DNA of 39,286 nucleotides, taken from positions 1 through 39,286 of IMG/VR virus record IMGVR_UViG_3300024283_000063; one strand, given 5' to 3'. The DNA comes from a virus. Its lineage: Duplodnaviria; Caudoviricetes. Below are positions 1,990 to 35,027 of this stretch, piece by piece. How positions within the stretch are numbered: position 1 is the stretch's first letter; each line of letters begins with the position of its first letter. A program made the translations under genes and the position numbers. The notes beneath the pieces are model-generated. The model was not told where the DNA came from, ran no database searches, and saw only the letters and a program-made list of their open reading frames with translations.

Positions 1990-2483
1990 AATGGCTCCCC
2001 AGCAAGTTCAGCCGCACTCAGCTCCAACTTCGGCACAGGCAAATCCATCGGCAACTCAGCCAACGCCGGCTGCGATATAGCCTCAATCCGCACCACCACC
2101 CGAGCCTCACCATCAGGCTCCATGCGCTTTGCGGAATACTCGAACACGTATTTATCGTCACCGAACGCAACACCCTTGAGCGCATCAAACAGCACCTTGG
2201 TCGCGTTGTCCAGGTCGATGCAGCGCACATCATCGTCCCACCCGAACGGATTCGCCCTGGCGCGCTTTACCCAATCCTGCGGGCGCTGCGGATACAGTTC
2301 GATGGCAACCCTCACCCTACCGTCGATCGGCGTGACCAGCCCTGCGGCCCGAGCTGCGTATGCGATGTCGCTGCGATACGCTTTGGCTTCCTTCGTCGGC
2401 ACGATGGTGATGTGATTGCCGATGCGAACCGGGCGCCAATAGCGATTTCCGCTAATCGGGTAAGGAACGATGAGGGTAAGCAT
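1986..2483 (-). CDS. rusA: RusA-family Holliday junction resolvase
   Basis: PYPISGNRYWR...DLDNATKVLFDALKG....DDKYV. Confidence 0.9.
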   Translation of the reverse strand: MLTLIVPYPISGNRYWRPVRIGNHITIVPTKEAKAYRSDIAYAARAAGLVTPIDGRVRVAIELYPQRPQDWVKRARANPFGWDDDVRCIDLDNATKVLFDALKGVAFGDDKYVFEYSAKRMEPDGEARVVVRIEAISQPALAELPMDLPVPKLELSAAELAGEPF

Positions 2484-2497
2484 TGCGCGCGCCGTGA

Positions 2498-2836
2498 TCA
2501 GTTGATCGTGGATCCGCCGCCCTCGACTTCGCCGATACCCTCAAACAGCGCCTGCTGCTGCTCGATGTGTCGGCGGGTATCTTCGTATTTGCCATCTGCG
2601 CTCGATTTGATGAGGCGCTTCAAGTCCGGTGCATTGCATCCGGCGCGCTCGGCGACAGCCTTGAACAAGGTGTTATATTCTTTATTCGCCGCCTCCTTCT
2701 TCTTGTAGCCAGCCATCAGTTCCGTGCAGGCGTCCTGAATTGGCTTGAGTTTGATGGTTTCTTCGCCACCATCCTTTGATTTGCGACCGCGCGAGCCCGG
2801 CCTTAAATCGAGAGCGGTTTCTGCTTGAGTTCCCAT
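2498..2836 (-). CDS. Small helical protein, possibly GapR/T4 DsbA-like dsDNA-binding
   Basis: ATG 2836 with upstream AGGA; ..FKAVAERAGCNAPDLKRLIK.. pattern; function is an inference. Confidence 0.5.
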   Translation of the reverse strand: MGTQAETALDLRPGSRGRKSKDGGEETIKLKPIQDACTELMAGYKKKEAANKEYNTLFKAVAERAGCNAPDLKRLIKSSADGKYEDTRRHIEQQQALFEGIGEVEGGGSTIN

Positions 2837-3093
2837 ATAGCTTTTCCTTTCGTTGGTGATGGTTTGTCCTGCGCGTTGTGCTGCTGTAGTGGTAGTTCGC
2901 TCGAAGCGACTTCGTGCCATTGCCTCTGCGTGCCAAGCGTGCGCCCACCTTCCGATGCAAACTTGATTCTCGCGTCCGGGAATGTGAGCCGCATTTCGTC
3001 AAGGAATGCGGTGACAATTGGCATGGCAGCGCGGTTCGCGTTTGCCGCAGCGGCGCGATCTTGCAGGATTTGCGTGGCGGATTTGCTGATCAT
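2803..3093 (-). CDS. Hypothetical protein
   Basis: 96-aa ORF in the coupled early-right chain; F...I.FASEGGRTLG motif. Confidence 0.55.
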   Translation of the reverse strand: MISKSATQILQDRAAAANANRAAMPIVTAFLDEMRLTFPDARIKFASEGGRTLGTQRQWHEVASSELPLQQHNAQDKPSPTKGKAIWELKQKPLSI

Positions 3094-3266
3094 GCGACCA
3101 CCGCCCCAAATAGATCAGGCTGCTGCTCGCGCACTTCCACCTCATAGCCATGCAAGCGCGAGCCGTCAGCAAACTCCGCTGCGAGTGCGTGCGTATCGAA
3201 CGCATCCTCCATGAAGTCGGTATCGCCCGCTGTCCATGTGCGCACGATGAAGCGCTGGTCGCTCAT
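3090..3266 (-). CDS. Hypothetical protein (58 aa)
   Basis: ATG at 3266 overlaps the upstream stop (ATGA); its stop overlaps the next ATG. Confidence 0.55.
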   Translation of the reverse strand: MSDQRFIVRTWTAGDTDFMEDAFDTHALAAEFADGSRLHGYEVEVREQQPDLFGAVVA

Positions 3267-4092: not shown

Positions 4093-4506
4093 CTATCTCC
4101 CTTGAATCATTTCCATAGCCCACGCCAATTTTTTCTCGGCGTCGATCCGGGCCTCGCGCTCGGTGCGCAATTGCTTCTCTGTTTCGGTCTCACGCTTGCG
4201 TAGGCTGTGCAGGTCGTAGCCGCGTTGGTAGAGAAGCCAAAGCAGCGGAGCCTCATTTCCAGCTTGGTCGAATAAATCCCCGTATTTGTCCTGCGGGAAG
4301 TGAGCCTGCCCGCTCTTAATTCGCGTCCAGACAGCGGGATCAATGTCTACGCTGCGGCACAGGTCTTTGTCGTTCACAAAGCCCGCCATATCCGCGCACA
4401 GCACTATTGCCTTGGTCATTGACGGCTGGCGAATAATCGCCCCGCGATCCACATCCTGCATGGGCTTCGGCAATGACAGTTTCAACTGCTGTGCAATGTC
4501 CGTCAT
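4093..4506 (-). CDS. CII-position HTH transcriptional regulator
   Basis: Follows cro; HTH DKDLCRSVDIDPAVWTRIKSG plus C-terminal coiled coil. Confidence 0.65.
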   Translation of the reverse strand: MTDIAQQLKLSLPKPMQDVDRGAIIRQPSMTKAIVLCADMAGFVNDKDLCRSVDIDPAVWTRIKSGQAHFPQDKYGDLFDQAGNEAPLLWLLYQRGYDLHSLRKRETETEKQLRTEREARIDAEKKLAWAMEMIQGR

Positions 4507-4562
4507 TTCAATTGACTCGCATTGCAGGACGGTATGCAGGCAAAATTTTTTGCATGCACAGG

Positions 4563-4596
4563 AAGAAATACCCCGCGCACCTTTCGATACGCGGGG
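4563..4596 (-). terminator. tR1-like hairpin between cro and cII-like gene
   Basis: CCCCGCGTATC-GAAA-GGTGCGCGGGG (11-bp stem including G-U pairs) followed by TATTTCTT. Confidence 0.6.
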
Positions 4597-4667
4597 AAAA
4601 CCAGCGCGGAGACAGGGAGGAAGTGAAAACTCCGGGCTGGGTGGTGCTCGGTGATGTGGCGCGCATG

Positions 4668-4901
4668 TTAGGCGGCCGCCTTGGTGCTGCGGATGTGTGC
4701 CCAATCGACATCGGGGCGCAGCATGTCAACAGTCACCGCGCCGCTGGACTCCCGGTCAATGTTGATGCACAGGGATTCGCCGAGCTTTTGCCCGATGCTG
4801 ATCGCCTTGCGCAGATATCCTTCGGACGTCCCACAACGAGCGCAAAACGCCGCCCTTTCGTCCGCTGGCATGGTGTTTATGAACAAAAGCAGTGTTTCCA
4901 T
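4668..4901 (-). CDS. cro: Cro/YdaS-like repressor
   Basis: AAFCARCGTSEGYLRK...I...SSGAVT..MLRPDVDW; divergent from the repressor. Confidence 0.85.
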   Translation of the reverse strand: METLLLFINTMPADERAAFCARCGTSEGYLRKAISIGQKLGESLCINIDRESSGAVTVDMLRPDVDWAHIRSTKAAA

Positions 4902-4907
4902 GCCCAT

Positions 4908-4950
4908 ATATTACTGAATGGTAATGTTATTTGCAATACCCTTTGGTAAT
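4908..4950 (-). promoter_or_regulatory. pR promoter with two OR operators
   Basis: TTGCAA (4936-4931), 17 nt, TAATAT (4913-4908); imperfect palindromes ATTACTGAATGGTAAT 4910-4925 and AATACCCTTTGGTAAT 4935-4950. Confidence 0.8.
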
Positions 4951-4984
4951 TTAATTGCCGTCGATGTGCGCGGATAATTTCTAC

Positions 4985-5485
4985 ATGGATATTCAAGAAG
5001 TTAGGCGGCGTCGGCTTAAGGAATGGCTCGACGACAAATTCCCCGGCAAGCGACAGCAGAAGCGATTTATCGCGGATGTGGCGCAGCGTCTTGATGAGGA
5101 CATCAACCAAGGGGAGTTGTCCGCCTTGTTGGGAACCAATAAGTCATTCGCCGAGAAAAAGGCGCGGAACCTTGAGCGGCTCGGAGGTATGCCGGATAAG
5201 TGGCTTGACGGCGACCCGGCAGAGACCGGGGCCAGTTACCTTTCCTCTCTCGCGGACGCCGTTAACGATCCGGTGCTCAAAGAGTTGCTGGCGTTTTACG
5301 GAAATCTCAGTCCAGAACTTCAGGATAAGCTACGCATGGACGCGCAGTTTTACCACTCCCTTCAACACCCGCATCAGTCACACTCGAACCCGTCACCCAA
5401 TGCAAGACGCGCCGCGCCAGCGAAAGCGGCTATCATGACTCAGGGGATTATCAACAAAGCCAAAGCTCACGCGAGGAAAACATGA
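4985..5485 (+). CDS. CI-like immunity repressor lacking a recognisable S24 domain
   Basis: MDIQEVRRRRL...NQGELSALLG..KSFAEKKARNLE...GMPDKWLD HTH; divergent from cro. Confidence 0.8.
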   Translation: MDIQEVRRRRLKEWLDDKFPGKRQQKRFIADVAQRLDEDINQGELSALLGTNKSFAEKKARNLERLGGMPDKWLDGDPAETGASYLSSLADAVNDPVLKELLAFYGNLSPELQDKLRMDAQFYHSLQHPHQSHSNPSPNARRAAPAKAAIMTQGIINKAKAHARKT

Positions 5486-5826: not shown

Positions 5827-5858
5827 TCACTCCACCGCATCAACCCAGGAGTGCCCAA

Positions 5859-15829: not shown

Positions 15830-18496
15830 TTAAGCCTGCGAAACCGTCAGATCGTCGATGTAGCCGCTGTAGGTCGTGCCGCCATACGCGAACGCCTCGA
15901 CCTGCACCACCCCGGCCTCTGTCGGCGTAAAGGTGATCGTCACCAGTTCCCACGTATCGGCGACTGCGGTCATCAGCGTTTGAACGTCGCTATCAACGCC
16001 CTCGATCTGGCGGCCCTTGCATAGCAGGCCGAAGGTCAGCCCGGTGTTCGAGCGACGCATGCGCGCGCTCACCGTCACCAGCGAACTCGCCGCCACGGCG
16101 ATCTGCGCCACGTGCATGTTGAGCGGCTCGTAGATATTGCGGTCTGCGCTGGTCGGTGAAAACTGCCACGCCTGACCTGTGCCGGAATAGCGCACGGCGG
16201 TCTGCGAGACGATGCTGCCGCCGTCGGTAAAGATGCGGCTGTCGCCCACCACGCCACCATACGCGCTCACGCACAGGCGCGAGTCGCGCTTCGCCGATGC
16301 CGTTGCCACCGGCGTGCTGTCGGCAAAGGTGCCGCTGCGGATGTACGAAGGCGCGGTCGCGGCAGTGAATCCAACGCCTGCCGTTGTATTACCGGACGTG
16401 CTTACCTTGCCGATTTTGTGACCGCCTCCGCTCCCAAGGTCAAGCCCATACGTGCCGTTGTTGTTGGCCGCGCCGATGTACTGCACTTCGCAGTTATGTG
16501 ATTCGCCTAGACGAACTCCGGCAGTCGCGTTGTCATTTGCTGCCGTGATGGTTTTGATTCGACCATTTACCACGCCAAGAGTGCCGCCCTGAAACAGCAC
16601 GCCCGTTCCGCCATTATTATTCGCACGAGTGATGGTATCAGCCGTGTAGCCAAGCACACTGAGCTGGGTATTAACGCCGTGACTGCCGTTGCCTGAAGCA
16701 TCCGTCAGCGTTCCGATGCCGCACTGGTAGGTGTTGGTGCCGACGCCGCCGTTGTCGTCGAATAGCGCCCCGCTCGTGCCGTTGTAGTTCGCCGCCACTG
16801 CAGAAACATTCACGCGTACGCCCTGCGCCACGTCCACGCCGTTCGATGTGTTGTTGTTGTGATGCCCGCCTGTAATCGTGAGTTCTGTCGATTGATTGCT
16901 GCCTACATAGATGCCGTCGCCGTAGCGCACGGTTGATATCTTGTCCAGCGCCATGTAGTTTTTCGTAGCGAAAAGGAAGCCACGCCCGAACCCGTTGCGG
17001 CCGTCGAACCACGTTTCCAGATTCTGCGTGGTCATGGCGGTGCGATCCCATCCGCCGGAATAGGTGACCACGTTGCCGCTCGTGCCTGTGGGAGAAATGC
17101 TCACCACCGTAGCCGTGGCTGACGCCGCCAGCGTGGTGGCGAAGGTCTCTCGCTTATAGGCCGTAACCGTTTCCGTGGTGCCGGTGTAGCCGCGCTGAGG
17201 TGAGGCGGCCGGTATGGTGTTGACAACTTTATCCAACATCACGCGCGTCGAGTTAATCGACTGGATCGCGCACCAGGTCTCGGTGCCGGTGTTTTTGCCG
17301 ATCAGGCTGATGAGGGACAGGCTGTCATTGCCCGCCGCTTTAACGGCCAGAATGTTGTCCAGCAGGAAGGTCTGCGCGCCGCGATCCGTGTCGATATAGA
17401 GGGCAACGGAGGCCACTGCAGCATTCAGATTCGTCGTCAGATCGACCGTGACCGGCACCCACTGGTTGAGCGCGGCGAGCGCGGGGATCGCAACCGTATG
17501 CACTGAACTCGTGCCATCGACTGCCGTGCAAAGGCGTATCGACGCATCGCCCGCTATCGCCACCGTCCCGGAGGTCTGCTTCACCCAGAACGTGACTTGC
17601 TGGTAGCTGGACAGGTCCAGCGTGCCGGTGGCGAAAAATGCGGCAAGTCCGGTGGTGTGCGCCGCCGCCACCGCGATCTGCTGGCACTCGCCGCCCTCTT
17701 TGAAGTCGGACGTGATGACGGTGCAGACGTTCACACCGGGCGAGGTGATGGCCGTCCAGTTGGTTTTGGTGCCCTGGTTGCCGCACAGCGCGATGTTCTT
17801 GGTGAGCGCCGACGCGAGCTTGACGCGGCAGTTCGTGATCTTGCGGAACGTGCCTGTGGCGCCGCCGACGCCATTGCCCACACTGTTGGTGCCGTCCGCA
17901 TTCAGGAGCGTAAAGTCATTGCCGGAAACCGTCACGTCCCACACACCGTTTGCCTTGGTGTTCGTCGTGTGGCCGTTGACGATGATGGTGTCACCCGTGG
18001 CCAGGCCGTGGCCCGACTTGGTCATCACAATCGGCGTTGCGTTCGTGCTGCTGGTTGGTACGATGGTCGCCGCCAGCGGCCCGTTCGTCCAGGTGCCGTT
18101 AATGCCCAGCGACGTGGGCGACGGGCTGCCCTTCACCCGGCAGGTATCGCCCGCAGCCATCTTGCCCGCAACGGTTGAAAAGGTCAGAAACGCATCGGCC
18201 TTGCTCGATCCGCCGCGTGGTGTCACCGTGCCATTCGCGTCCGCCGTGGCCTGCCACACCGCCCCATCGAGATCAAAGTTGTCTGCATCAAACACGGTGA
18301 GCTTCCACGCGGCATTCAGCCATGCGGTGAACAGCGTGAGATCGACCACGGCGCCGGTCACCAAGCCATGCGCAGTCTTGTTGATGCGCGTTGTGCTGCC
18401 GGCTGGATTGGATGCCACGCACGTCAGCAACGCGCTGCGCGCGGTGTCGCTGCCGCTCTCGGTGTCGAGGTAAAAGGTCGCGCTGGTGTATGACAT
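15830..18496 (-). CDS. Large tailspike/adhesin-like virion protein
   Basis: Two HGL.TG (FCCH-like) repeats, CBM-like jelly-roll segment, NN.T.G beta-helix-like repeats; at the end of the tail module. Confidence 0.7.
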   Translation of the reverse strand: MSYTSATFYLDTESGSDTARSALLTCVASNPAGSTTRINKTAHGLVTGAVVDLTLFTAWLNAAWKLTVFDADNFDLDGAVWQATADANGTVTPRGGSSKADAFLTFSTVAGKMAAGDTCRVKGSPSPTSLGINGTWTNGPLAATIVPTSSTNATPIVMTKSGHGLATGDTIIVNGHTTNTKANGVWDVTVSGNDFTLLNADGTNSVGNGVGGATGTFRKITNCRVKLASALTKNIALCGNQGTKTNWTAITSPGVNVCTVITSDFKEGGECQQIAVAAAHTTGLAAFFATGTLDLSSYQQVTFWVKQTSGTVAIAGDASIRLCTAVDGTSSVHTVAIPALAALNQWVPVTVDLTTNLNAAVASVALYIDTDRGAQTFLLDNILAVKAAGNDSLSLISLIGKNTGTETWCAIQSINSTRVMLDKVVNTIPAASPQRGYTGTTETVTAYKRETFATTLAASATATVVSISPTGTSGNVVTYSGGWDRTAMTTQNLETWFDGRNGFGRGFLFATKNYMALDKISTVRYGDGIYVGSNQSTELTITGGHHNNNTSNGVDVAQGVRVNVSAVAANYNGTSGALFDDNGGVGTNTYQCGIGTLTDASGNGSHGVNTQLSVLGYTADTITRANNNGGTGVLFQGGTLGVVNGRIKTITAANDNATAGVRLGESHNCEVQYIGAANNNGTYGLDLGSGGGHKIGKVSTSGNTTAGVGFTAATAPSYIRSGTFADSTPVATASAKRDSRLCVSAYGGVVGDSRIFTDGGSIVSQTAVRYSGTGQAWQFSPTSADRNIYEPLNMHVAQIAVAASSLVTVSARMRRSNTGLTFGLLCKGRQIEGVDSDVQTLMTAVADTWELVTITFTPTEAGVVQVEAFAYGGTTYSGYIDDLTVSQA

Positions 18497-18723: not shown

Positions 18724-19991
18724 GCGTCGTTCTCCGCGTCTGTCGTGATATAAAGAATGATGCCGTGCAGCCGAGCGTCAATCGTCATCGTGTCGCCGCC
18801 ATCCCCCACCACGCGCGATATGCGGAAAAACACCACATCCTGCGCCGCTGGAGTGCCGGCCACGGTAATGGCCGAAGATTCCGGCCCGACGTAGATATCA
18901 TCCGTAGTGCCGCCGGTATCGGTGCTGGTTTGCACCGTGCCGAATGCAACAGCTATTGTGTCATCGTCGCTGATCGCAACCGCCTGCAGGCTCCACACCA
19001 CGCCGAAATTGGTTATGGTCGCCGCGTGACTCCATATCGGCTTGAACGTCACCGTGCCTTCATTCCAGCTTTTTGGCATCGGGATCGCAAACTGTGCGTA
19101 TTCCTGCACCGTCGGATCGAAGTCGATAGTGATGATGTCGGGCTTGTCGCTTGCCGACGCAATAACAGCCAGCGCCGCGCAGCCGCCGGTATAGCTTGGC
19201 GCTATCGCCGCCGCCATGATCGGGATTGCGTGCTTTCCAATACCGCCGGCCGCATCGGGGTTATCACTCTGAAAATTGCAGTAAACGGTTTTATCGTCGG
19301 CAATCGAACCGCCCGAGGCCTGCAGCGTCACGGCGAACTTGCGGTAGCCGGTTCCGTCGGTGGGCGCCGCGGTCCACTTCCACAACTGCCACTTCGAGGC
19401 GTCGTCAGACTGCTGAAGGTAAATAAAGCCAGTAGACGCGAGTGATGCCCATAGCGTGGCCAGGCTCACCGCGTCGGCGGTCTGGTTGTCGAAATAGAGG
19501 AACGTGGCCGAGGCCTGCGTGGCGTTGTTCCACTTGAAGAGACCGTTGCCGGGATCGCTGTCGGCGGTCGATCCTGTATCACTGGTAAAGGTCAGGCCCT
19601 TCAGCTCGGTGCCACCGCTCGCCGCGGGGCCGCCGTGCACTCCGCCAGCACCCGCGCGATGATCCTCTACGGCGGAAACCAATCCTCCAGATGTGGTGAT
19701 CTTGTAGACGCGGGCGTAGCTTGTGGTGTCGTTCCAGTTGGTGTTGCTGGTGCTCACACTAATTACGCCGTTGCTGCGCAACACCACCACGTAGTTTGTG
19801 GTGCTGTCTGTTAGCGTCAGCGTACCTTCCGCCACGGAGAAGCCAGCCCAGCGGCCGCCGTAGTAGCCCCAGGTCAGCGCATCCGTGACCGGCTGGCGTT
19901 TGCCGTAGACGCTCGAATAATCGATAGTCTCGAAGTTCTCATTCATCTGCACTTCGGGGCTGGCCGAAGCATTCACGTTTTGGAAGTTCAT
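18720..19991 (-). CDS. Tail fibre/receptor-binding protein
   Basis: Directly downstream of the central tail protein; N-terminal E..MNENF..I...GYYGG anchor-like domain; multidomain, Thr/Ser-rich. Confidence 0.7.
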   Translation of the reverse strand: MNFQNVNASASPEVQMNENFETIDYSSVYGKRQPVTDALTWGYYGGRWAGFSVAEGTLTLTDSTTNYVVVLRSNGVISVSTSNTNWNDTTSYARVYKITTSGGLVSAVEDHRAGAGGVHGGPAASGGTELKGLTFTSDTGSTADSDPGNGLFKWNNATQASATFLYFDNQTADAVSLATLWASLASTGFIYLQQSDDASKWQLWKWTAAPTDGTGYRKFAVTLQASGGSIADDKTVYCNFQSDNPDAAGGIGKHAIPIMAAAIAPSYTGGCAALAVIASASDKPDIITIDFDPTVQEYAQFAIPMPKSWNEGTVTFKPIWSHAATITNFGVVWSLQAVAISDDDTIAVAFGTVQTSTDTGGTTDDIYVGPESSAITVAGTPAAQDVVFFRISRVVGDGGDTMTIDARLHGIILYITTDAENDA

Positions 19992-22891
19992 ACAGTCGCC
20001 TCAAGTTTGTAACCGCGTCCCACGGTGGCGGATATCTGGTACGCGCGGGCATACACGGGATCGCCTGGCGTCAATCCGTCAGTTGTCTGATCTGCGGCGC
20101 TGTAGGCCACGGTTGCGCTGGTGGCGACTATGGGTGTCGCGCGCGCCAGCGTGGAATAGGTGTCGTCGGTATAAATGTCTATCTCGTATCGCTCTAATTC
20201 CTCGCCCAATGGCAGGCTGATTCCGAGCGATCCGATCATGCGAACGGAGTAGCGGCTGCGGCGCTGCAAGGTAAATACAATGTTGTTCGAGCTGTCGCGC
20301 GCCGCGCGGATACCCACCAGAGAAAACGGCTTCTTGCCGACGCCGGTATCGGTGAACGGCTCCGCAGTCACGCCGCTCAACGTGCGTCCGAAAGTCACGC
20401 CCTTATAGAAGAATTCGAGACCGAGCTGTGAATTGATCAGATTGATGCGTCGCAGGCCGGCGGGGCGCAGCAGCACGCAACGCTCATCGGCGGCGTGATC
20501 CACCATCGCCCACTCTGTTCCGCGACAGCCTCGCAGCAAGCCGGTCAAATCGTATATGCCGGTTGAAATGAGTTCGGCAGATATAAACTGGATAACCTCA
20601 GAGCCAACCAGCAACAGATTCGCACCGCCGTCATTCAGCACAGTGTCGCGCGTGCCGCTCGACAGTTCACCTGCGCCAACGTCAACGCGAAGTATGTGCG
20701 TGTGGTCGAACACGCGCGGCCCCGTCCAGTCACCGAGAGTGGTGTCACAGTTACCGAACACCGCAGACTCTCCAACATCAGCCACGCCGCTGTAAGTCAC
20801 CCAATCCGGCGAACGGAAGATCGAGCCGCCGGGGTACGGCGTGCCGTCACCTTTGAGCGCCCCATAGATGCCGCAGTCGTCATCAGCATCGCGCAGGATG
20901 GGTATGTCCATCAACTCCATCAGCGCGTCGGGTATCGCCGCCACCTCGTCGCTTGAGGTGTAGTCCGTGTTCGTCTCGGCTTCGTCGATCAGGATGTTCG
21001 GATCGTCCAGCACCAGATCAAGCTCTATCAGCGGATACTGGCCCTTTAGCTGGACAATGCGCATGTCGAACAGATCGCCGTCCCTGTCCGTGATCGTGAT
21101 AACGTCCGTGGGTTCCAGCGCGGAATAGTCGCCGAGCAGCGCAATCGGTGCGGTGATGAGGGCGAGCTTCTGATCTGCCGCAACCGTTACCGCGATGCCC
21201 TTCCCTTCCGCTGGAGTCAGCCCAATGTCAAGCTGAATGGATGCGGTAGTATTCGTTACCGCAGTCAGCAGGCGGTCGCTATCTTCCAGGCCGTCCTGGT
21301 AGTCATTGCTCATGTTGTGAAAGCCGATATAGACTTTCGCGGGCAACTCTATGTCCGTAGCCTGCCTGAGCAAGAACGGCTCTGAGGGCTGGTCTCCCAT
21401 AGCCGCGCCGAGGTCGGCATAGGGTATCGTCATGACCGACGCACCGCCGCGCGGCACGCATTTGATAACGCTGCCGGACATCACATAATCGAAGTAGTAA
21501 GCCGTCGCCAGCATTTCCAGCATGGCGCGATTCGGTATTCCTGACAGCGCCCGCACGGGCTTGGTAAGCGTTGCCAGTTCGCTCACGTCGAACTGATCCA
21601 CGGTCAACCCGAGCGCAAGGAAAATGTCGCTCACCACATCCTCAAGCGCTTCGGTGCCCGGCGTGACAATTGCCGTCGGGCTGTATTCGGTAGAGTAGAA
21701 ACCAGAGTTGTATCCAGTAGGTACTGGGTAAGCGAACGCGGACTGCCCGAAATTCACCGTGAATACGTCATTCAGAGAAAGCGTGCTGACAGCAGGGTAA
21801 AGCGCCCCCGGCAGCGAAAGCAAAATCGCGCCCTGCGATACGCCGTTTTTGTAGAACGTGATATAGCCGGTGTCCAGATCCAGCGCCACTCCGATAACGT
21901 CGCCCGCTGTCCAGGTAGCGCCGTATGCGGTGCCGCCGCCGCCGCTGCCATCGTACCTGTTGCCGTTGGCGCTCGCATAACCCCTGCCGTGCGTTTCCTG
22001 CCCGACGTAGTGCTGCAGGTTGCTGTCTCCGTCATCCACGCCGATAAAAGCAAAAGTAGCCTTAACGGAAAATGTCACCTCCCAATACCATTTCCCGGAT
22101 GTCAAGCCCAGGGCAGCGCGCGACGTGGCGTAGGTCCCGCCATCCACAGTCGTTAAACTCGTGTGCGTTGCGGATAGCAGATCATCGCTCAGCGTCAAAT
22201 CCGCGCTGGTGTCCGCCGCATTGAGCGTGCTGTAGTCGACATAGGTCGCTTTGGTATAGACCTCGAACGTGAGCATGCGCATCTGGCCGGAGTTGCCAAG
22301 GTGCCACGACTCAATGAACACGCCGCCCATGCCACGGTACGCCGACGCATTTGCGGCGCCGACGGCATCTTCATATACCGGGTCAGGCAACTGATCCGAC
22401 GCGCCCGGATAAATCGTGATGCGGTCCCAATGCGGCGTGCTGACTGTCTGCGGCGTCCAGATCAACTCGCCGTCGATCCAGATGCGCGACACCCCGAGGA
22501 TTTCGTTGTCGCATAGCAGGATCAGTACATCAACATCCTGCGTGTAGGTGACCGTCACTGTGGTCTGGGTCGGCGAACCTCCGCCTTTGCCGCCACCGCC
22601 GGACTGCTGAACATCGGTGTGTGAAATTGTGCGCGGCTCGGACAGATACGCGAAAATCGGTGGCAGGCGCGGACTGCCCCACGCGCGCGGAATCGGTTGG
22701 CCGAAGCCGACTGTGGGTACGTTCAGGTTTCCCGGTTTCTGGCCGTATTGGCCTTGCGCCGGGACTTTGGGCGGCCCTTGGATGAGACCGCCGATTGCGC
22801 TGCCGATACCAATTCCGGCCAAAGTTCCAATGCCAGGAACTACTGAGCCGATAACTCCGCCGACAACGGCGAGAATTATTCGCGCGCCCAT
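19988..22891 (-). CDS. Central tail-tip/host-specificity protein (GTA-like) with SPRY-like insertion
   Basis: FGQPIPRAWG, GGGKGGG, RIWIDG.LIW, AYRG, LEP.DVI, LLRG.RGTE, RRSR motifs; ATG 22891 in TAATG overlap. Confidence 0.85.
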   Translation of the reverse strand: MGARIILAVVGGVIGSVVPGIGTLAGIGIGSAIGGLIQGPPKVPAQGQYGQKPGNLNVPTVGFGQPIPRAWGSPRLPPIFAYLSEPRTISHTDVQQSGGGGKGGGSPTQTTVTVTYTQDVDVLILLCDNEILGVSRIWIDGELIWTPQTVSTPHWDRITIYPGASDQLPDPVYEDAVGAANASAYRGMGGVFIESWHLGNSGQMRMLTFEVYTKATYVDYSTLNAADTSADLTLSDDLLSATHTSLTTVDGGTYATSRAALGLTSGKWYWEVTFSVKATFAFIGVDDGDSNLQHYVGQETHGRGYASANGNRYDGSGGGGTAYGATWTAGDVIGVALDLDTGYITFYKNGVSQGAILLSLPGALYPAVSTLSLNDVFTVNFGQSAFAYPVPTGYNSGFYSTEYSPTAIVTPGTEALEDVVSDIFLALGLTVDQFDVSELATLTKPVRALSGIPNRAMLEMLATAYYFDYVMSGSVIKCVPRGGASVMTIPYADLGAAMGDQPSEPFLLRQATDIELPAKVYIGFHNMSNDYQDGLEDSDRLLTAVTNTTASIQLDIGLTPAEGKGIAVTVAADQKLALITAPIALLGDYSALEPTDVITITDRDGDLFDMRIVQLKGQYPLIELDLVLDDPNILIDEAETNTDYTSSDEVAAIPDALMELMDIPILRDADDDCGIYGALKGDGTPYPGGSIFRSPDWVTYSGVADVGESAVFGNCDTTLGDWTGPRVFDHTHILRVDVGAGELSSGTRDTVLNDGGANLLLVGSEVIQFISAELISTGIYDLTGLLRGCRGTEWAMVDHAADERCVLLRPAGLRRINLINSQLGLEFFYKGVTFGRTLSGVTAEPFTDTGVGKKPFSLVGIRAARDSSNNIVFTLQRRSRYSVRMIGSLGISLPLGEELERYEIDIYTDDTYSTLARATPIVATSATVAYSAADQTTDGLTPGDPVYARAYQISATVGRGYKLEATV

Positions 22892-23337
22892 TACACGACG
22901 CCCGGAATTGAAAATGCCGCTACAAAGCGGCATCGTTCGTGGAACATTAACCGCGTTTCCACGACTCGCGGCGGGTGCGCGTTATTGGCCGCGTGGATGA
23001 TGGACAGCACGCCGAAAACCGGATGCACGCCGACTATGCCCAGGTGCGTCGGGTGCTCGTCGGCTTGCACGCAGACCACATTGCCAGCCTGCATTTCCTC
23101 GCGCTCGATGCGCAGCAGATACCTGTCGGCTTCGGCCAGCATGCGCACGCCATCTGGCACAGGTCCATACGGCTCGACGTCCCAATCCGGCATGCACAGA
23201 GCCAAATCACGCATCGTACACACGATGAGGCCGATGCAGTCGAGCGCGCCACGCGGCCCGGGGTTGCGCTGCATGTGGCCGAACGGCGTGCCGAGGTACG
23301 ATCGCGCGCAGTCGATGACGTCGGCGCGCGTCGTCAT
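22891..23337 (-). CDS. NlpC/P60-like tail tip peptidase
   Basis: ARSYLGTPF.H....LDCIGL...HLGI...IIHA. Confidence 0.85.
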   Translation of the reverse strand: MTTRADVIDCARSYLGTPFGHMQRNPGPRGALDCIGLIVCTMRDLALCMPDWDVEPYGPVPDGVRMLAEADRYLLRIEREEMQAGNVVCVQADEHPTHLGIVGVHPVFGVLSIIHAANNAHPPRVVETRLMFHERCRFVAAFSIPGVV

Positions 23338-27513: not shown

Positions 27514-27833
27514 TATTTGGTGCCTTTCATGGTTTCAAGTGCCGCCGCTTCAAGGGTGCGAATGGAATCGAATACGTCGTGCCACTCCGCACGCGGGATG
27601 CCGGCCGTGCGCATCACAAACGGAACCGCCGCGTAATCCAGCCCGGTCGCCCCGGCCATGCCCACGCGCCATTGAGTCCCAAGCTGGATAAAGCAATTCA
27701 CGGCCGGCAGGTTGTCGGGCCACACGATGACATCCGGGCCGCCCGCCTCATCTACCGTCAGGCCGAAAGCAGCCGCCTCGTCCGCGCTCACCCCTTTCGA
27801 GTAAAGCGCGGCCGAGACGGCTTTCAGTTTTTT
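27513..27833 (-). CDS. Tail assembly chaperone frameshift extension (gpT-like, DUF1799)
   Basis: VWPDN..AV..F....TQWRVG..GATGLDY; entered by -1 shift at A AAA AAC (27833-27827). Confidence 0.8.
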   Translation of the reverse strand, partial: KKLKAVSAALYSKGVSADEAAAFGLTVDEAGGPDVIVWPDNLPAVNCFIQLGTQWRVGMAGATGLDYAAVPFVMRTAGIPRAEWHDVFDSIRTLEAAALETMKGTK

Positions 27834-29723: not shown

Positions 29724-30059
29724 TTACCCGTTCACCACGGCGCTGACCGGCAGCGTGACCCACTCGCGGCCGCTTTTCATGTCCGGCAGCACGCCCTCGA
29801 TGTTGTAGAGGGTGCCCTCATGCTCAATACGCATCGACGGCACCACGCCCCCCAGGCGGCGAATGGTGACGCGTGCAGCGATGTTGGATGCCATCTGCGC
29901 GGCGTTGACGAACTCGCGCGCCGACAGCGGCACGATCTCGGCCATGACGGTGGCGAATTCGGCCCAGGTCACTGTCACCGCGCCCGTGGTGCCGTCTTTG
30001 GTGTCGACGCGGCGCTTGATGACTATGCGGTGGCGCAGGCGCCCGGCGCGCAGGTTCAT
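29724..30059 (-). CDS. Head closure/head-tail adaptor (SPP1 gp16-like)
   Basis: AGRLRHRI.I...W...ATV.A.I.PLS.RE...MRI...G..YNI..VLPD. Confidence 0.88.
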   Translation of the reverse strand: MNLRAGRLRHRIVIKRRVDTKDGTTGAVTVTWAEFATVMAEIVPLSAREFVNAAQMASNIAARVTIRRLGGVVPSMRIEHEGTLYNIEGVLPDMKSGREWVTLPVSAVVNG

Positions 30060-30658
30060 ACCCCTAAACCTTGCCTGTATTTTGCGAGCAAATACCGCGC
30101 CCCAAGCGGCAATTCCATCAGGTTGTCAGCATCCACCGCCTCGCGGTTGGTGAAGTAGTGGCCGATAAACAGGTGCATCGCCTGCCGGATCGGCTCGGGC
30201 ACCACGTCGGCCGGGGAATCCGCCGACGGATAGCCGGCGGTGTAGCGCACGCGCACGGAATCGACATCGCAGCGCGCCACCGGCCAGGATTCACCATACA
30301 GCGGCACCACCAGCCCCTTGTGCGCAACAACCCGATAATCGGCGGCGGACACGACCTGATCGACGCCATACGAGTCGATATACGTGACCGACACGACCGA
30401 CCGCACCGGGCCTTGCGGCAGTTCAATCACGTACGGGTAAAAAGACTCCTGCGATATCTCCAGCGTCTTGAACACCAGCGACAATTCCAGCTCCTGCTCG
30501 CACGCCTGGCGCGCGGCCGTGATCAGGCGCCGGATGCGCGCGGCCTCGGGGTAATCCGCCGGCGAATCACTACCCGCGGTAACGCGCAGATTTTCTGCGG
30601 CCTCGTCGAGCAGGATCGGCTCTGTAGTGTTGGCGCTGATGACGCGTGCTTCAGCCAT
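30056..30658 (-). CDS. Head-tail connector (HK97 gp6-like, long form)
   Basis: EPI.L.EA...LRV...LI.AAR..CE...LP.GPV.SV.SV.Y.D...AGY...VP.PI.QA...H...NRE; GGAG RBS upstream of ATG 30658. Confidence 0.88.
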   Translation of the reverse strand: MAEARVISANTTEPILLDEAAENLRVTAGSDSPADYPEAARIRRLITAARQACEQELELSLVFKTLEISQESFYPYVIELPQGPVRSVVSVTYIDSYGVDQVVSAADYRVVAHKGLVVPLYGESWPVARCDVDSVRVRYTAGYPSADSPADVVPEPIRQAMHLFIGHYFTNREAVDADNLMELPLGARYLLAKYRQGLGV

Positions 30659-31367
30659 GTTTGAACTCCATGCCGCCGCGCCATTTGTTGAGAAAAATCT
30701 GCCGGTTGCGACGGAACATTTCCGGCGTCCAGCCCGACTGCGCGCCGATGCGTACGTGCTCGACCACCAGGTCGTCGCGCATGCAGAACTTTGCGCCGGC
30801 GTGCTGCAGGCGCATGACGAAATCCGGGTCGTCGTAGCCGGCGCCGTCACGGTAATCTTCATCGAAGCCGCCGGTGTCGTCCCACAGGCTGCGGTGCATG
30901 ATGGCCATAAAGTGGTAATCCGCGCCCTTTGGCAGCATCGAGCCGACATCACCATCGTTCGGGCGGTTGCGCGTGCTGTGGCAATGCCACACTTGCTTTT
31001 CGGCGTGCCATGCTGCGGCCAGCACATACTTTTTCGGGTCGTCGCCCAGCTCGGCGATCATCTGCCGCAGGATCGGCGTGGTGTGCAGGTGATCGGGGCA
31101 CGACAGCCCGATGATGTCGCCATGCGCCGCAGCCACACCGCGATTGAGCGGCACGCACGGGTTAAGCGGGCCGGACTTCTGCGGCAGCCGCACCACCTGC
31201 ACGCGAAACGGCATCGCCGGTGGCTGATACGGCAGCGCGTTGCCGTCGTCTACGATGATCAACTCCATGTCGAGATCGGCGTAGTGCTGGGCGAGCAAGT
31301 GGCAGGCTTTGTCGGTTACGGCTTCGCGCTGCCAGTAGGGCCAGATCAGAGACAACTTCTTGCTCAT
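30651..31367 (-). CDS. GT2/GT7C-like glycosyltransferase
   Basis: LSLIWPY...ELIIVDDG...NRG..AA.GD...GGFDEDY..G.GYDD.DF..RL; ATGA overlap at 31367. Confidence 0.85.
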   Translation of the reverse strand: MSKKLSLIWPYWQREAVTDKACHLLAQHYADLDMELIIVDDGNALPYQPPAMPFRVQVVRLPQKSGPLNPCVPLNRGVAAAHGDIIGLSCPDHLHTTPILRQMIAELGDDPKKYVLAAAWHAEKQVWHCHSTRNRPNDGDVGSMLPKGADYHFMAIMHRSLWDDTGGFDEDYRDGAGYDDPDFVMRLQHAGAKFCMRDDLVVEHVRIGAQSGWTPEMFRRNRQIFLNKWRGGMEFKHG

Positions 31368-33403
31368 ACCCACACCTGCTTAACCCATCCGCCGGCCTGA
31401 TGCGGGCGCGGAGGCCCGCCGAAGCACACGACCGCGCACTCGGGCGGCACTTTTTCCTGCAGCCGGTCGTACTTGAATGACTGGAAAAACCCCGGCAGCG
31501 CCTGGTGCAGCTTGGGGATGTGCTCGAAGCAGTCGCTGATGAACGCCTGGTCGCCCATGTAGCGGTTTTCGGCGTGCTTGACGTGGTAGTCGATCCAGTA
31601 ATCGGGCTTTTCGGCGAAGCGCTGGTAGACGTGCGGCTGGGCGCGTGCAAACCACATGGCGCCGGAGTTGCCGACTTTCACGTCTTTGGCGCGGATGTTG
31701 AGCATGGAAAAGTCGTGAGGAATGGTCATCACCGCGTCGAGCTTGCCGGTGATTACGGTATCGAGATCGAGATACAGTGTTTTGCCGCGGATCACATCGG
31801 GGCGGAACATTTCGAGCTTGGACCACCAGCCTTTCCAGTTGTGTTTCAACGGGATGCGCTCGCACGGCACCTCGACATCACTCAGGCACACAAAGCGGTG
31901 CGGCAGCGTCAGGTTCTTCGCCACGCCGTCACGCAATTTGCGCACGTACTCGGCGTTGTAGTCGCCACCGGATTTCAACACGCACAGCACGGTGAGTGGC
32001 TGCAGGTTGAGCAGCGCGCGGATCGGTTCGCCCGTGGCGATTTCGTCGAGCGACCACTGCGCCGACGCCAGGCGCTCGAACACCGGCAGGCGGTCGGGCA
32101 TCAGCGGCTTTTCGATATCTTCCAGCCGGCTGCCGGCGGCACCTGCGCAGATCCAGTGCGGGGCGGTGTAGATCACTGGGATGCCCATGGCCAACGCCTT
32201 CACGCCCGCTGCGGACGCCCAAATAATGCAAGCATGTGCGCCTTCCAGGTCGCGCGCGAGACTCGCGTCCGGGTGTTCTGGTAGCTTTTTCCAGTTTCCG
32301 GGGTGCTGCCTTACCCTGATTTCCCGCTTGGTCAACTTCCGCAAAGCGGCGACGGTTTTTTCCGTCCAGTCCTGCGGCATGGGCTGCGCGCCGATGCCGC
32401 GGCTCGGACATACCAAAACATGCCCGCCATCCTTGCGCCAAGGGGACAAGGTGACGCCCAGCGCGTCCAGGCGTGCCCTGCTACCCTGCGGCCAGTCGCC
32501 GGCGCCGTTGTGGCCGTTCAGCGCCAATGCGCAATGCTGCTGGCCGTCTCTGCCCCGCAGGTAGCCGTTCTCGGCGACGAGCGCGCGACCCGTCGGCATG
32601 GGGTAGCCCAGCATGCCCTTACCCCAAATCACGGAAACGTCAGCGCCGGGCGCCACCTCTCCCGCCGCGGGGAATCGGGCTGCGGCGAGACCACGCAGAA
32701 AGGCGTCGTGCTCTAGGGGCAGCAACTTCGGCGGCACACAAAGCGCCGATGTACCGGACGCCGGCGCCCGTGCAGGCATCTGCACCGGGGCAAACAGTGC
32801 CTGCTCTATCGGCAGGCACTCGAAGCAGGTCAGAGCGGTGCGGCGCGTGGCGTTAATCACTTCGACGCCCGCGGTGCGCAGATCCGCGCCGAGCTGGATC
32901 AGCAATTGCCGCCACGTCGGCAGGTCGCCGAGGTTCGGCAGCGGGTCGCGGTGGTCGCCGTGAAAATGCGTCTCGCCGTTCGGCCCCTTCTGCATGTCGT
33001 AGCCCAGCAGGATGATCTTCGCAGCACCCCACAGGTAAGCCAGGCCGATGGCCTGATAGCCGCTGTTTTTGCCGGTGTGGATGCGGCCGGGCGTGTGCGA
33101 CAGGCCCTGCTCATCCACGCCCTGAATCCAGTTAATCGCGCCCTGCAGGCGCTCGGCGATACTCCACAACTCGCCAGTCACCGCACGCTCGACTTCGGCG
33201 CCGTATGCGACCCACCACCGCAGGTCGGCAAAATACAGAACGTCGGCCCACGGGGCCTTGCGGAATGTGGTGTTGATGGCGATCACTTTTCGGTTTTCGC
33301 GGTCCTGATCGCGCCACGCTTTAACGGCGGCGACATCTTCGTCGGTGAGGCTGGGGCCGCTGGCGATGCAGACGACGGTTGCCCCTGCCCATCGTCCGGC
33401 ACT
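31364..33403 (-). CDS. Three-domain glycosyltransferase (Maf/GT42-like, KpsC/KpsS-like GT-B, GT8-like GT-A); likely entered by -1 frameshift, first in-frame start GTG 33286
   Basis: D1 VVCIASGPSL..VIAIN..NSGYQAI.LA...GA.KIILLGYDM; D2 ENGY...IRVRQHP...S.AGV.AL..GIPV; D3 Y...YV..L...GWWSKL..F...LYLDLDTV...NSG.M...GDQ.FI...VCF.G.PRPH. Confidence 0.8.
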   Translation of the reverse strand, partial: SAGRWAGATVVCIASGPSLTDEDVAAVKAWRDQDRENRKVIAINTTFRKAPWADVLYFADLRWWVAYGAEVERAVTGELWSIAERLQGAINWIQGVDEQGLSHTPGRIHTGKNSGYQAIGLAYLWGAAKIILLGYDMQKGPNGETHFHGDHRDPLPNLGDLPTWRQLLIQLGADLRTAGVEVINATRRTALTCFECLPIEQALFAPVQMPARAPASGTSALCVPPKLLPLEHDAFLRGLAAARFPAAGEVAPGADVSVIWGKGMLGYPMPTGRALVAENGYLRGRDGQQHCALALNGHNGAGDWPQGSRARLDALGVTLSPWRKDGGHVLVCPSRGIGAQPMPQDWTEKTVAALRKLTKREIRVRQHPGNWKKLPEHPDASLARDLEGAHACIIWASAAGVKALAMGIPVIYTAPHWICAGAAGSRLEDIEKPLMPDRLPVFERLASAQWSLDEIATGEPIRALLNLQPLTVLCVLKSGGDYNAEYVRKLRDGVAKNLTLPHRFVCLSDVEVPCERIPLKHNWKGWWSKLEMFRPDVIRGKTLYLDLDTVITGKLDAVMTIPHDFSMLNIRAKDVKVGNSGAMWFARAQPHVYQRFAEKPDYWIDYHVKHAENRYMGDQAFISDCFEHIPKLHQALPGFFQSFKYDRLQEKVPPECAVVCFGGPPRPHQAGGWVKQVWV

Positions 33404-33621
33404 TTTTTTGCGGTGTCTGCCGCGGGCTCGTAAATCTCCACCGTGCCGCCCTGCTCAGTGCGGTTGGCGCTGGGCCGCCCCTGCGGCGCGAACGCGATGC
33501 GCACCAGCCCGGCACGCTCCAGATCGGCGGCGAGCTGTGCGTTGATGCGGATACCTTGGCCGGTGCGCGCATTGATGCGGCCATGCACAAATTCGGTAAG
33601 CGGGATTGCAGTCACATCCAT
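33283..33621 (-). CDS. Small post-capsid protein (FI-position); zero-frame product of putative frameshift
   Basis: GGAG RBS; compact N-terminal domain F..G....G......A..L..AGLV followed by a low-complexity S/P/A tail. Confidence 0.75.
   Translation of the reverse strand: MDVTAIPLTEFVHGRINARTGQGIRINAQLAADLERAGLVRIAFAPQGRPSANRTEQGGTVEIYEPAADTAKKVPDDGQGQPSSASPAAPASPTKMSPPLKRGAIRTAKTEK
33353..33409 (-). other. Putative -1 programmed frameshift signal (A AAA AAA plus pseudoknot)
   Basis: GCA AAA AAA GTG; stem CGGACGAUGG/CCGUCGUCUG; loop GGGGC complementary to downstream GCCCC. Confidence 0.7.
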
Positions 33622-33635
33622 CGGTGATGCTCCAT

Positions 33636-33662
33636 AAAAAAGGCCCGGATCGCTCCGGGCCT
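33636..33662 (-). terminator. Intrinsic terminator after major capsid gene
   Basis: AGGCCCGGA-gcga-TCCGGGCCT followed by TTTTT. Confidence 0.8.
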
Positions 33663-33692
33663 CTGGTTGCTACTGGTTACAACCTGCCGCGA

Positions 33693-35027
33693 TTAGCTGC
33701 CGACCAGGTTGGTCGATTTGATGAATGCCTCCGGCCGATACACCGCCAGCGCGAGACGTTCCTCGCAGCGGATGGTGATCAGGTTGCGAATGAAGTCATC
33801 CTCATTCATGGTGGCGATCACCACGTTGGCATCCTCGCGGTCAAACAGCTGCGCGCCGAGGCGGAATGCACCCACGAGGCCCGTGTCGCGCGTCATCGAC
33901 TTGGTAGCGACCACCGGCCGCGCCCACAGCGTCGGGTTGATCATCCCGACAGGGTTGCCGATGATGTAGCGACCGAGCGTGTCTTTCTTAAGCTCGATTT
34001 CCGTCCAGTCGATCGGGTGCATCACGATGCCGGTCGCCGGATACTCGGCCAGCTCAGCCTGCAGCAGCATCAGGCGGAACTGGTCGATCTTCGACGGGTT
34101 GGGCACGGTGGTCGGCGCAACGTACGTCGTAGCGGCGGTGTAGATGCCGTTGAGGTTGTTGCCGCTGCCCGATCCCTTGAGCAGTTGCGTTTCCTCCACC
34201 AGCTTCAGGCCATAGCGCAACCGGCCGTCAATCTGCGACTGCAATTGCATGAAGTCGTCGAGGATTTGCTTGGTCGCCTTGATGTAGTGCGCGATAGTGA
34301 CCACCGCAGACTGCACCTGCTCGTAGGCGATGTCGGAGGCGGGTTTGACGGTGCCTTCCGATACTGTCGCGGCGCTGTTGGTGAAGCCCGTCTCGCGCAG
34401 GTAGGCGATCAGGTTGGAGCTGGTGCGGCCCGGCGTGATCAGATCGCGGATCGTCAGGCGCTGATTCGGCTGGATGACAATACCGGGCTGCATGTCGGGC
34501 GACACACCAATGGTGCTTTGCTGCGTTTGCTGATCGCTCAGCAGCGTGGCGTTGAAGCGGTGCACGTAGCTGGAGTTATGCGTGCGCATGCCGTCACTTT
34601 CGACCCACGCCTTGAACGCGTCGTCGCTGACCAGTTGGCCGCCGATCGATTTTGGTGCGTCTTTTTCTTCGGTGCCGCGGCGGGCCAGCTTTTGCTCCAC
34701 TTCGAGCAATTGCGCCTGCAGTTCGCCCTGTTTCACCAGCATTTCGTCGACTTTTGGCTTGTCCAGCGCGTACATGTCGCCGTGTTTTTTGGCTTCTGCG
34801 AGAGCTTTGGCTCCCATCTCCTTGACGTCTTGGCTGATCTTGGCGAGCGCTTTCTCCGTGGCTTCGTGCAGGGCTTTCAGGTCGGTGGGCGGACCTTCAC
34901 CGAAGCGCGCGTGCAGCGCCAGGCTGTCGAGGTAATACACCAGCGAAAGGCCGATGGCCTTGGGTAGAGCGAGCGCGTAGATCAGCGCTACGGTGATAAA
35001 TTGAACGGCAATGCTAAATGTTTTCAT
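33693..35027 (-). CDS. HK97-fold major capsid protein with hydrophobic N-terminal extension
   Basis: RLTIRDL..PG.T.SN...Y.RETGFTN.AA.V.EG..KP, IAH.IKA.KQIL.D, LWARPVV, EERLAL.VYRPEAF; AGGAG RBS and ATGA overlap. Confidence 0.95.
   Translation of the reverse strand: MKTFSIAVQFITVALIYALALPKAIGLSLVYYLDSLALHARFGEGPPTDLKALHEATEKALAKISQDVKEMGAKALAEAKKHGDMYALDKPKVDEMLVKQGELQAQLLEVEQKLARRGTEEKDAPKSIGGQLVSDDAFKAWVESDGMRTHNSSYVHRFNATLLSDQQTQQSTIGVSPDMQPGIVIQPNQRLTIRDLITPGRTSSNLIAYLRETGFTNSAATVSEGTVKPASDIAYEQVQSAVVTIAHYIKATKQILDDFMQLQSQIDGRLRYGLKLVEETQLLKGSGSGNNLNGIYTAATTYVAPTTVPNPSKIDQFRLMLLQAELAEYPATGIVMHPIDWTEIELKKDTLGRYIIGNPVGMINPTLWARPVVATKSMTRDTGLVGAFRLGAQLFDREDANVVIATMNEDDFIRNLITIRCEERLALAVYRPEAFIKSTNLVGS

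Follow-up and report, generated by a model that had tools for sequence, protein, structure and literature searches.

How does a phage translate the front of an enzyme whose reading frame offers no start codon? The question is raised by IMGVR_UViG_3300024283_000063, a virus record of 39,286 bases, here called the window and considered over its full length, in which genes are read mainly on the minus strand and follow one another in the order terminase, portal, ClpP, HK97-fold capsid, an open reading frame (ORF) of 112 amino acids (aa), a long glycosyltransferase (GT) frame and a GT2 gene. The 112-aa ORF overlaps the start-less front of the GT frame, and it is very likely, to judge from the sequence, that a -1 ribosomal frameshift at the heptamer A_AAA_AAA makes a 752-aa fusion besides the 112-aa protein. 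The elements concerned are the following.

33283 to 33621, minus strand: 112-aa zero-frame product, with a folded N-terminal domain, a linker and a Ser/Pro/Ala-rich basic tail.
33487 to 33621, minus strand: predicted beta-beta-alpha domain (residues 1-45) resembling the gpFI C-terminal domain (gpFI-CTD) and L9-N, from a structure model and Foldseek.
33403 to 33409, minus strand: slippery heptamer A_AAA_AAA (K72 K73), a run of seven A (A7) in the register GCA AAA AAA.
33353 to 33398, minus strand: predicted H-type pseudoknot, with stem 1 at 33398-33389/33378-33369 and stem 2 at 33385-33381/33357-33353.
32780 to 33403, minus strand: GT domain 1 (PHROG 4603, E 3e-44; predicted Maf / GT42 / MptE-like fold), its first 39 codons without a start.
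31997 to 32749, minus strand: GT domain 2, a putative, weakly matched GT107 KpsC-like GT-B (profile against PDB, KpsC E 0.011, HP motif aligned).
31364 to 31996, minus strand: GT domain 3 with a DLD motif (PHROG 1962 glycosyltransferase, E 1e-39), homologous to P1 pmgQ.

On the minus strand, the GT frame begins after a TGA at 33457-33455 and is then open down to 31364, with its first ATG, GTG or TTG only at 33286 and none between that TGA and there; CTG, ATT, ATC, ATA and ACG are likewise absent from the 22 codons between 33454 and the Trp codon of the frame. The start-less part encodes GRWAGATVVCIASGPSLTDEDV and holds the first strand and the ASGPS loop of GT domain 1, and the PHROG 4603 profile, matched over positions 1-173 of 178, has its position 1 at residue 30 of the GT frame, 27 codons upstream of the GTG. 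A -1 shift at 33409-33403 joins 73 + 679 = 752 aa. The bases that encode the Ser/Pro/Ala-rich tail of the 112-aa product also encode, in the other frame, the GT first strand, and the PSSASPAAP tail of the small-protein family likewise corresponds to bases of the GT segment. Strict in-register heptamers are rare, with only 5 in the ~7,750 late-gene codons of the window, and only two of them, at 33409-33403 and at the tail-chaperone site (27833), are followed by a -1 frame that stays open for more than 100 codons. A sequence-only reading of this stretch had described the frame without a start until 33286, the in-frame run GCA AAA AAA, and a fusion of about 752 aa; all its coordinates and its arithmetic hold. 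Its further claim, that the first strand and loop of the enzyme lie upstream of any start, agrees with the profile beginning inside the start-less stretch.

Homologous loci bear out the -1 frameshift proposed in that reading. They were gathered in four scans, three of which, alignment scans, contributed the best 80 of 584, 586 and 109, and they form a sample near the query, not a census. Among the 315 sequences obtained (the window and five annotated records included), 13 were without the motif and 4 were dropped as mis-picked or truncated, and the remaining 298 gave 171 loci after de-replication at 80% identity: 75 overlap loci, where the motif is overlapped, in the shifting frame, by a small ORF that has a start; 83 own-start loci; 7 preceded by a long ORF in frame; and 6 that fall in no class. 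A strict XXXYYYZ heptamer stands in the shifting register in 41 of the 75 overlap loci (10 and 7 in the other registers), and in register in 5 of the 89 own-start or in-frame loci, while resampling of synonymous codons yields 6.8 +/- 2.3, with a maximum of 17 in 500 rounds. When any Y is admitted, the heptamer is found in 54 of the 75, against 15.8 under resampling. As twenty different heptamers are in use among the overlap loci, the pattern is kept while its letters change. The conservation of the slippery site that had been suggested as a check is seen most directly in the nine closest distinct loci, which carry G_GGA_AAA or G_GGA_AAG (G_GGA_AAR) at the same codon as the window's site. Of 149 family proteins, 50 matched the pattern and could be scored, and 37 of these have GK at the slip codons; the D3-like loci, which represent one lineage, have C_CCA_AAG in 69 of 69.

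The missing start is equally widespread: 65 of the 75 overlap loci have no ATG, GTG or TTG in the 7-45 codons upstream of the motif, 8 have only GTG or TTG, and 2 have an ATG. Yet the start-less segment is as well conserved in the overlap loci (W 67, G 70, G 100, P 97 and S 100 per cent) as the same segment in own-start loci (W 70, G 67, G 100, P 97 and S 100 per cent), and the homologues retain the SGPS segment, whose absence the sequence-only reading had named as a point to look for. Among loci with at least 1.5 kb of upstream flank, 52 of 61 of the overlap type and 4 of 67 own-start ones have a capsid gene ahead of them. A Shine-Dalgarno-like word 5-20 nt 5' of the slip site occurs in 15 of the 41 overlap loci with a strict heptamer, against 5 of 41 in a control stretch; such a word is absent upstream of the slip site in the window. 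Zero-frame stops over the motif (2 of 73 against 57 of 89) were not used, since the class is defined in this way and the comparison is circular. Since the small gene overlaps the start-less GT front at a slippery site that dozens of related phages have kept, ribosomes likely slip by -1.

The 10-bp stem and the GGGGC/GCCCC pseudoknot proposed earlier are present as described, and both stems are kept in the ten closest loci. Stem 1, which follows the heptamer after a 4-nt spacer, has 10 bp including 2 GU, and stem 2 pairs the loop GGGGC (33385-33381) with the complementary GCCCC (33357-33353). The 38-nt hairpin, a segment chosen to fit the stem, folds with a z of -2.7; the 83 nt that follow the slip have no more than ordinary stability (z +0.4), a value that is uninformative because the scoring cannot handle pseudoknots. 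Across the ten closest loci stem 1 is 98% paired, with three one-sided changes, and 5-7 bp of stem 2 are possible in 10 of 10, with compensatory changes: pair 33-60 is G-C, U-A or C-G, and pair 30-63 is U-A or A-U. The covariation score of stem 2 in one register was matched by 9 of 500 shuffles. In a register-free test over all permutations of nine distinct loci, the cognate pairing of loop and 3' strand reached -10.3 kcal/mol against -8.5 when permuted (P 9e-4, inflated by relatedness). By eye, in alignment A3, the covarying stem 2 columns are wobble positions of the GT frame. Distant loci have other hairpins in place of the window's pseudoknot.

Natural in-frame fusions, which had been listed as a possible test, do exist among the homologues. 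The same small domain is fused in frame in 28 of 120 listed homologues, and in L097 such a fusion comes immediately after a capsid gene; the fused product is thus also encoded outright in nature. The best protein match, P0003, joins domain 1 in frame to a small domain of the window's type, whose identity to that of the window is 50% over 46 residues, and falls inside the window's clade, and, being a single-contig record, it could itself be an indel. It is the only fusion among the best 150 of a representative search, whose profile includes the zero-frame tail and favours short forms; a search with the small-protein alignment scored 7,992 candidates and turned up no relative of greater length at E <= 0.001, a result of little weight. 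As the small domain was scored in none of the 7 loci of the in-frame class, these are treated only as having an in-frame upstream ORF. On a tree (FastTree, midpoint root, event order not fixed) the three states are interspersed, with 36 Fitch changes against 76 when shuffled.

Isolate phages have the same arrangement. Pseudomonas phage D3 shows it unannotated: orf6.5 overlaps the match, whose first 90 bases lie ahead of the annotated start of orf7. The predicted slip site of D3, C_CCA_AAG, stands at 5837-5843 of AF165214.2 and would yield a product of 95 aa and a fusion of 239 aa. The junction is annotated in none of the six GenBank records examined, three of which have the overlap layout. The expectation that gene callers would miss the junction is therefore borne out by the homologues, D3 orf7 included, and many annotations stand to be corrected. 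D3 orf7 and its relatives are deposited without the first strand and the ASGPS loop, so that expressing them as deposited would give a truncated enzyme.

What would the shift add to the small protein? Domain 1 belongs to PHROG 4603, which includes D3 orf7, P1 PmgO and P7 HdmB. A model built on the relative P0003 (58% identical; predicted local distance difference test score, pLDDT, 93) finds its best match in Maf 5mu5 (Z 16.8, root-mean-square deviation (rmsd) 3.1, 190 residues aligned), followed by HPPK/MptE (Z 11.9), CstI 2p56 (Z 10.7) and then mammalian sialyltransferases; the skipped start-less segment holds strand E71-75 of this model. In a sequence search of the PDB, domains 1 and 3 gave nothing significant, and Capsule_synth PF05159 was matched by 1 of 25 domain 2 members, below cut-off significance. 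Close relatives swap domains 2-3 for a GT9-like domain (PF01075, a weak match in 2 of 8), and D3 has domain 1 alone, a modular swapping behind a fixed front end. A GT9-like domain with a GxGDxL motif follows domain 1 in frame in L083, L157, L322, L323, L325, L328, L330, L001, L002 and L089. Tentatively, and on the strength of the modelled Maf/GT42-like fold, domain 1 may use a donor of the nonulosonate type activated by cytidine monophosphate, or of the Kdo (3-deoxy-D-manno-octulosonate) type, and start or cap a glycan that domains 2 and 3 and the GT2 protein extend.

Stand-alone homologues are known as well: P1 pmgO, a gene of Citrobacter phiNP that adjoins lysis genes, and PAJU2 ORF010. In PAJU2 (L078), 2489-3058 is a stand-alone domain 1 with its own ATG, annotated as a 'structural protein', the basis of the annotation not being given; if founded, the label would suggest that the enzyme can be virion-associated. 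In phage P1 (L079), 2441-3103 and 4298-4999 are the 'putative morphogenetic' pmgO and pmgQ, homologous to domains 1 and 3, and P1 thus has a dispersed version of the GT set.

The small domain was modelled with pLDDT >90 over residues 1-40, and its top Foldseek match in the PDB is 2LSM, the gpFI C-terminal domain (E 0.028, probability 1.0). The two superpose with a VIA Z of 4.4 and an rmsd of 1.3 over 43 residues at 26% identity, the highest identity among the PDB fold matches. The small gene stands directly after the major capsid gene, as for gpFI-like packaging chaperones, and the analogy with lambda FI, drawn earlier from gene position, now extends to the best PDB Foldseek match, though the fold is common to L9-N, GINS and PriS. 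At the level of sequence families, the gpFI-family Pfam profile matched none among the 28 + 71 members scanned, weak matches were obtained to DUF7210 (8), DUF7302 (7), L9_N (3) and FluMu_N (1), and P0002 matched 0 Pfam families. It is the C-terminal domain of gpFI that binds the head protein, as Popovic is said to have found in 2012. According to an excerpt of PMC13595911, gpFI bridges the capsid and the terminase-DNA complex.

The overlap, the missing start, the heptamer and its in-register conservation, the covarying stem 2, the association with the capsid gene and the in-frame fusions are properties of the sequences themselves; the gpFI-CTD-like and Maf-like folds are predicted from models. 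Taken together they suggest a mechanism in which ribosomes on the late operon would translate the small gene and mostly terminate at 33283, while some would slip at K72-K73, stimulated by the predicted pseudoknot 4 nt downstream. The fusion would then be the minority product, as we infer by analogy with tail G/GT. The 112-aa protein would serve the head much as gpFI does, the same N-terminal domain in the fusion would bring the sugar-transfer module to the prohead or head, and the docked enzyme may glycosylate virion proteins. The major capsid protein is the likely binding partner or substrate of the fusion. As a whole, this proposal of a frameshift, head docking and possible virion glycosylation seems to us reasonably probable; that the gpFI-like domain binds the capsid and that the virion is the glycosylation substrate is, taken on its own, about evenly balanced. 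In its widest form, which is put forward with some reserve, a gpFI-like tag would deliver a Maf-like GT to heads, giving virions a nonulosonate- or Kdo-type coat whose density is set by recoding. With the same reserve, this would be a widespread, unannotated second frameshift of HK97-like phages of Gram-negative hosts, Pseudomonas D3 among them.

Other routes to the enzyme, or to its apparent split, have to be weighed against ribosomal frameshifting. Translation could re-initiate at the GTG that overlaps the stop of the small gene (GTGA, 33286-33283), the upstream segment being a relic. This coupling overlap is present in the window, and 16 of 120 homologues are called with a start downstream of the SGPS motif; however, among 73 overlap loci only 4 show this arrangement, the first in-frame start of overlap loci lies 20 to 155 codons past the Ser, and the skipped segment, model strand E71-75 included, is as conserved as in own-start genes. 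Re-initiation is thus very improbable as the source of the enzyme, though a little of its product might be made alongside the fusion. The same fusion would result if transcription slipped on the A7 and added an A to some mRNAs, and the site in the window is homopolymeric, as are A_AAA_AAA or T_TTT_TTG in 6 of the 54 heptamer loci. Most relatives, however, use non-homopolymer tandem-slip heptamers (G_GGA_AAR, C_CCA_AAG, C_CCT_TTG), the 3' pseudoknot is conserved, and an A7 is shorter than the usual runs at which transcription slips, which makes this route just as improbable. Least credible of all is that the window derives from an ordinary in-frame fusion with eight A (A8), one of which was lost through misassembly or through a deletion private to this genome. 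The homopolymer, the close in-frame fusion P0003 and the fact that the sole run containing the DNA is probably its source would speak for it. In that run, however, the stretch lies on one ungapped contig at a depth of 21.7 and reads A7, not the A8 for which the earlier reading had proposed to check, the contig being an assembled one and not independent of the window record. Furthermore, the identical 112-aa product is recorded from JGI/IMG, Logan and ENA, and 74 further de-replicated loci, isolates such as D3 among them, show the two frames offset in the same way.

A weightier alternative accepts the frameshift and denies that the small domain is a head-docking tag: its partner may be terminase, DNA or another molecule, or the shift may simply set a low dose of enzyme, and the substrate may be the tail tube, the host lipopolysaccharide or envelope, or a small metabolite as in MptE, instead of the capsid. 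The small-domain fold indeed recurs in L9-N, GINS and primase domains, HPPK/MptE are among the structures that domain 1 resembles, many homologues stand alone (P1 pmgO, Citrobacter phiNP, PAJU2 ORF010), and the relatives differ in domain 2, some having a KpsC-like and others a GT9-like one, both envelope-glycan families. Against this, the split form is nearly confined to the post-capsid slot (the 52 of 61 and 4 of 67 given above), gpFI-CTD is both the top Foldseek row and the PDB fold match of highest identity, the PAJU2 copy bears its 'structural protein' label (of unstated basis), and in-frame fusions keep the small domain, which a pure dosage role would not need. This alternative is less likely than head docking, and a serious one nonetheless.

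Several observations weigh against the proposed frameshift and docking. With respect to the slip site, 21 of the 75 overlap loci are without any XXXYYYZ, at least 2 of which (L164, L236) are mis-anchored motif picks kept in the count, and other heptamer-less loci show only tetramers such as C_CCT_ACG. Because the loci are related and the best 80 were taken per scan, locus counts are not independent events. With respect to the RNA structure, stem 2 occurs in two registers, covariation in the one that the window uses, which is shifted by one, falls short of significance (112 of 500 shuffles), and stem 1 is nearly invariant, constrained as it is by coding in two frames. Beyond the close subfamily, enrichment of structure downstream of the slip is modest (mean z -0.8), with z < -1.5 in 10 of 41 loci against 5 and 4 in controls. 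With respect to function, the gpFI match is weak (E 0.028) and tied with GINS, PriS and L9 (Z 4.3-5.7). The 83 own-start loci among the 171 are mostly without the small domain, so the enzyme can exist without it, and the GT activity of domain 1 is uncertain because its fold is common to the MptE/HPPK pyrophosphokinases (Z 11.9).

As a separate observation, nine heptamer-less overlap loci (L101, L128, L180, L195, L229 and L308, at 15-16 codons before the motif, and L166, L167 and L170, at 16) carry, where a slip site is normally placed, either T_TTT_A.. or C_CCT or C_CCC with ACG, TCG or ATT after it, and are candidate non-canonical -1 sites.

The window itself is that of an HK97-like temperate siphophage, with an integrase gene on the plus strand, and the metagenome run that contains its DNA is from soil, no RNA run being listed with it. 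The genes on either side of the overlap, and the tail-chaperone frameshift, are as follows.

33693 to 35027, minus strand: HK97-fold major capsid gene (PF05065, E 2e-50), directly upstream of the small gene.
33635 to 33664, minus strand: terminator-like GC hairpin with a U-run, just ahead of the small gene's GGAG (fold of 33615-33695, z -3.0).
30651 to 31373, minus strand: separate GT2-family gene (PF00535, E 6e-8), followed by head-tail adaptor and closure genes.
27827 to 27833, minus strand: A_AAA_AAC of the tail-chaperone G/GT frameshift (the 'first' frameshift), with a strong hairpin, z -5.9.

The terminator-like hairpin is absent from the list of the consensus scan. 3' of the GT2 gene come genes for head-tail adaptor, closure, tail completion, terminator, tail tube, chaperones and tape measure. 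The family match of the head-tail adaptor ORF (30056-31027, minus strand) begins only at residue 119, and its first ~120 codons, which overlap the GT2 gene, are probably untranslated. At the tail-chaperone site (27833-27760, minus strand) a very stable hairpin follows the slip, and Phage_TAC_4 is followed by DUF1799. In the DUF2460 gene, at 24578 on the minus strand, an in-register C_CCA_AAG with a 10+5 bp structure leads into a -1 frame that ends after 4 codons; it is probably a chance occurrence, the other option being a truncating shift. Further along, 19988-22933 (minus strand) encodes a host-specificity protein like that of gene transfer agents, with a SPRY domain (residues 281-397) preceding Phage-tail_3, and 15830-18496 (minus strand) is an 888-aa ORF after the tail tip genes that matched no Pfam family and resembles major tail protein PHROG 584 over residues 142-222.

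If correct, the proposal means that the phage morphogenesis operon contains two conserved recoding sites instead of one, and it offers a concrete possible answer to how a phage glycosyltransferase finds the virion. The cultured phages D3, PMG1 and PP9W2 lay both the shift and virion glycosylation outside mycobacteriophages open to test. In the literature, no description was found of a frameshift coupling a post-capsid domain to an enzyme, and the supplements of surveys such as PRFect could list the site.

The nearest known system is the -1 frameshift of the tail assembly chaperones G/GT in lambda-like phages, which Xu, Hendrix and Duda reportedly described in 2004. Both have an in-register XXXYYYZ, a 3' RNA structure and a place in a late morphogenesis operon, and both would yield a short product and a longer fusion with a common N-terminal binding domain. 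Unlike tail G/GT, the site described here belongs to the head module, and the shift would take place within the small gene, with 39 codons still to go to its stop; what it would add is a predicted enzyme (190-680 aa), where tail G/GT adds a chaperone domain. With lambda gpFI (2LSM) the small protein shares the position right after the major capsid gene and the same small fold (rmsd 1.3 over 43 residues), whereas its domain is N-terminal, followed by a disordered tail or, in the shifted product, by the GT, and there is no sequence-level family match. For TP901-1, a -1 fusion of the capsid protein to a gpFI homologue was proposed and, as an excerpt of PMC4493119 has it, not seen on Western blots; there the proposed fusion lies upstream of the gpFI-like domain, while in the window it lies downstream. 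Domain 1 resembles Maf (5mu5) and the Campylobacter GT42 sialyltransferases CstI/CstII in predicted fold (Z 16.8 and 10.7), and differs from them in its 12-14% identity, in the absence of Maf's other domains and in its proposed attachment to a phage targeting domain through recoding. Capsid glycosylation has a precedent in mycobacteriophages (Freeman 2023, as cited in PMC11256854 and PMC12691614), and the parts consulted of PMC11256854 report it second-hand for Che8 and Rita. As in those phages, several clustered GTs could build a capsid glycan. Unlike them, the window's putative GTs are placed between capsid and head-tail genes and include a frameshift-linked Maf-like domain, whereas those of Maravista, in the same excerpts (PMC11256854, PMC12691614), lie near the 3' genome end. 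The mechanism itself is the familiar tandem -1 slip, to which the window adds a covarying pseudoknot subfamily, a three-domain enzyme and, in D3, a ready test case.

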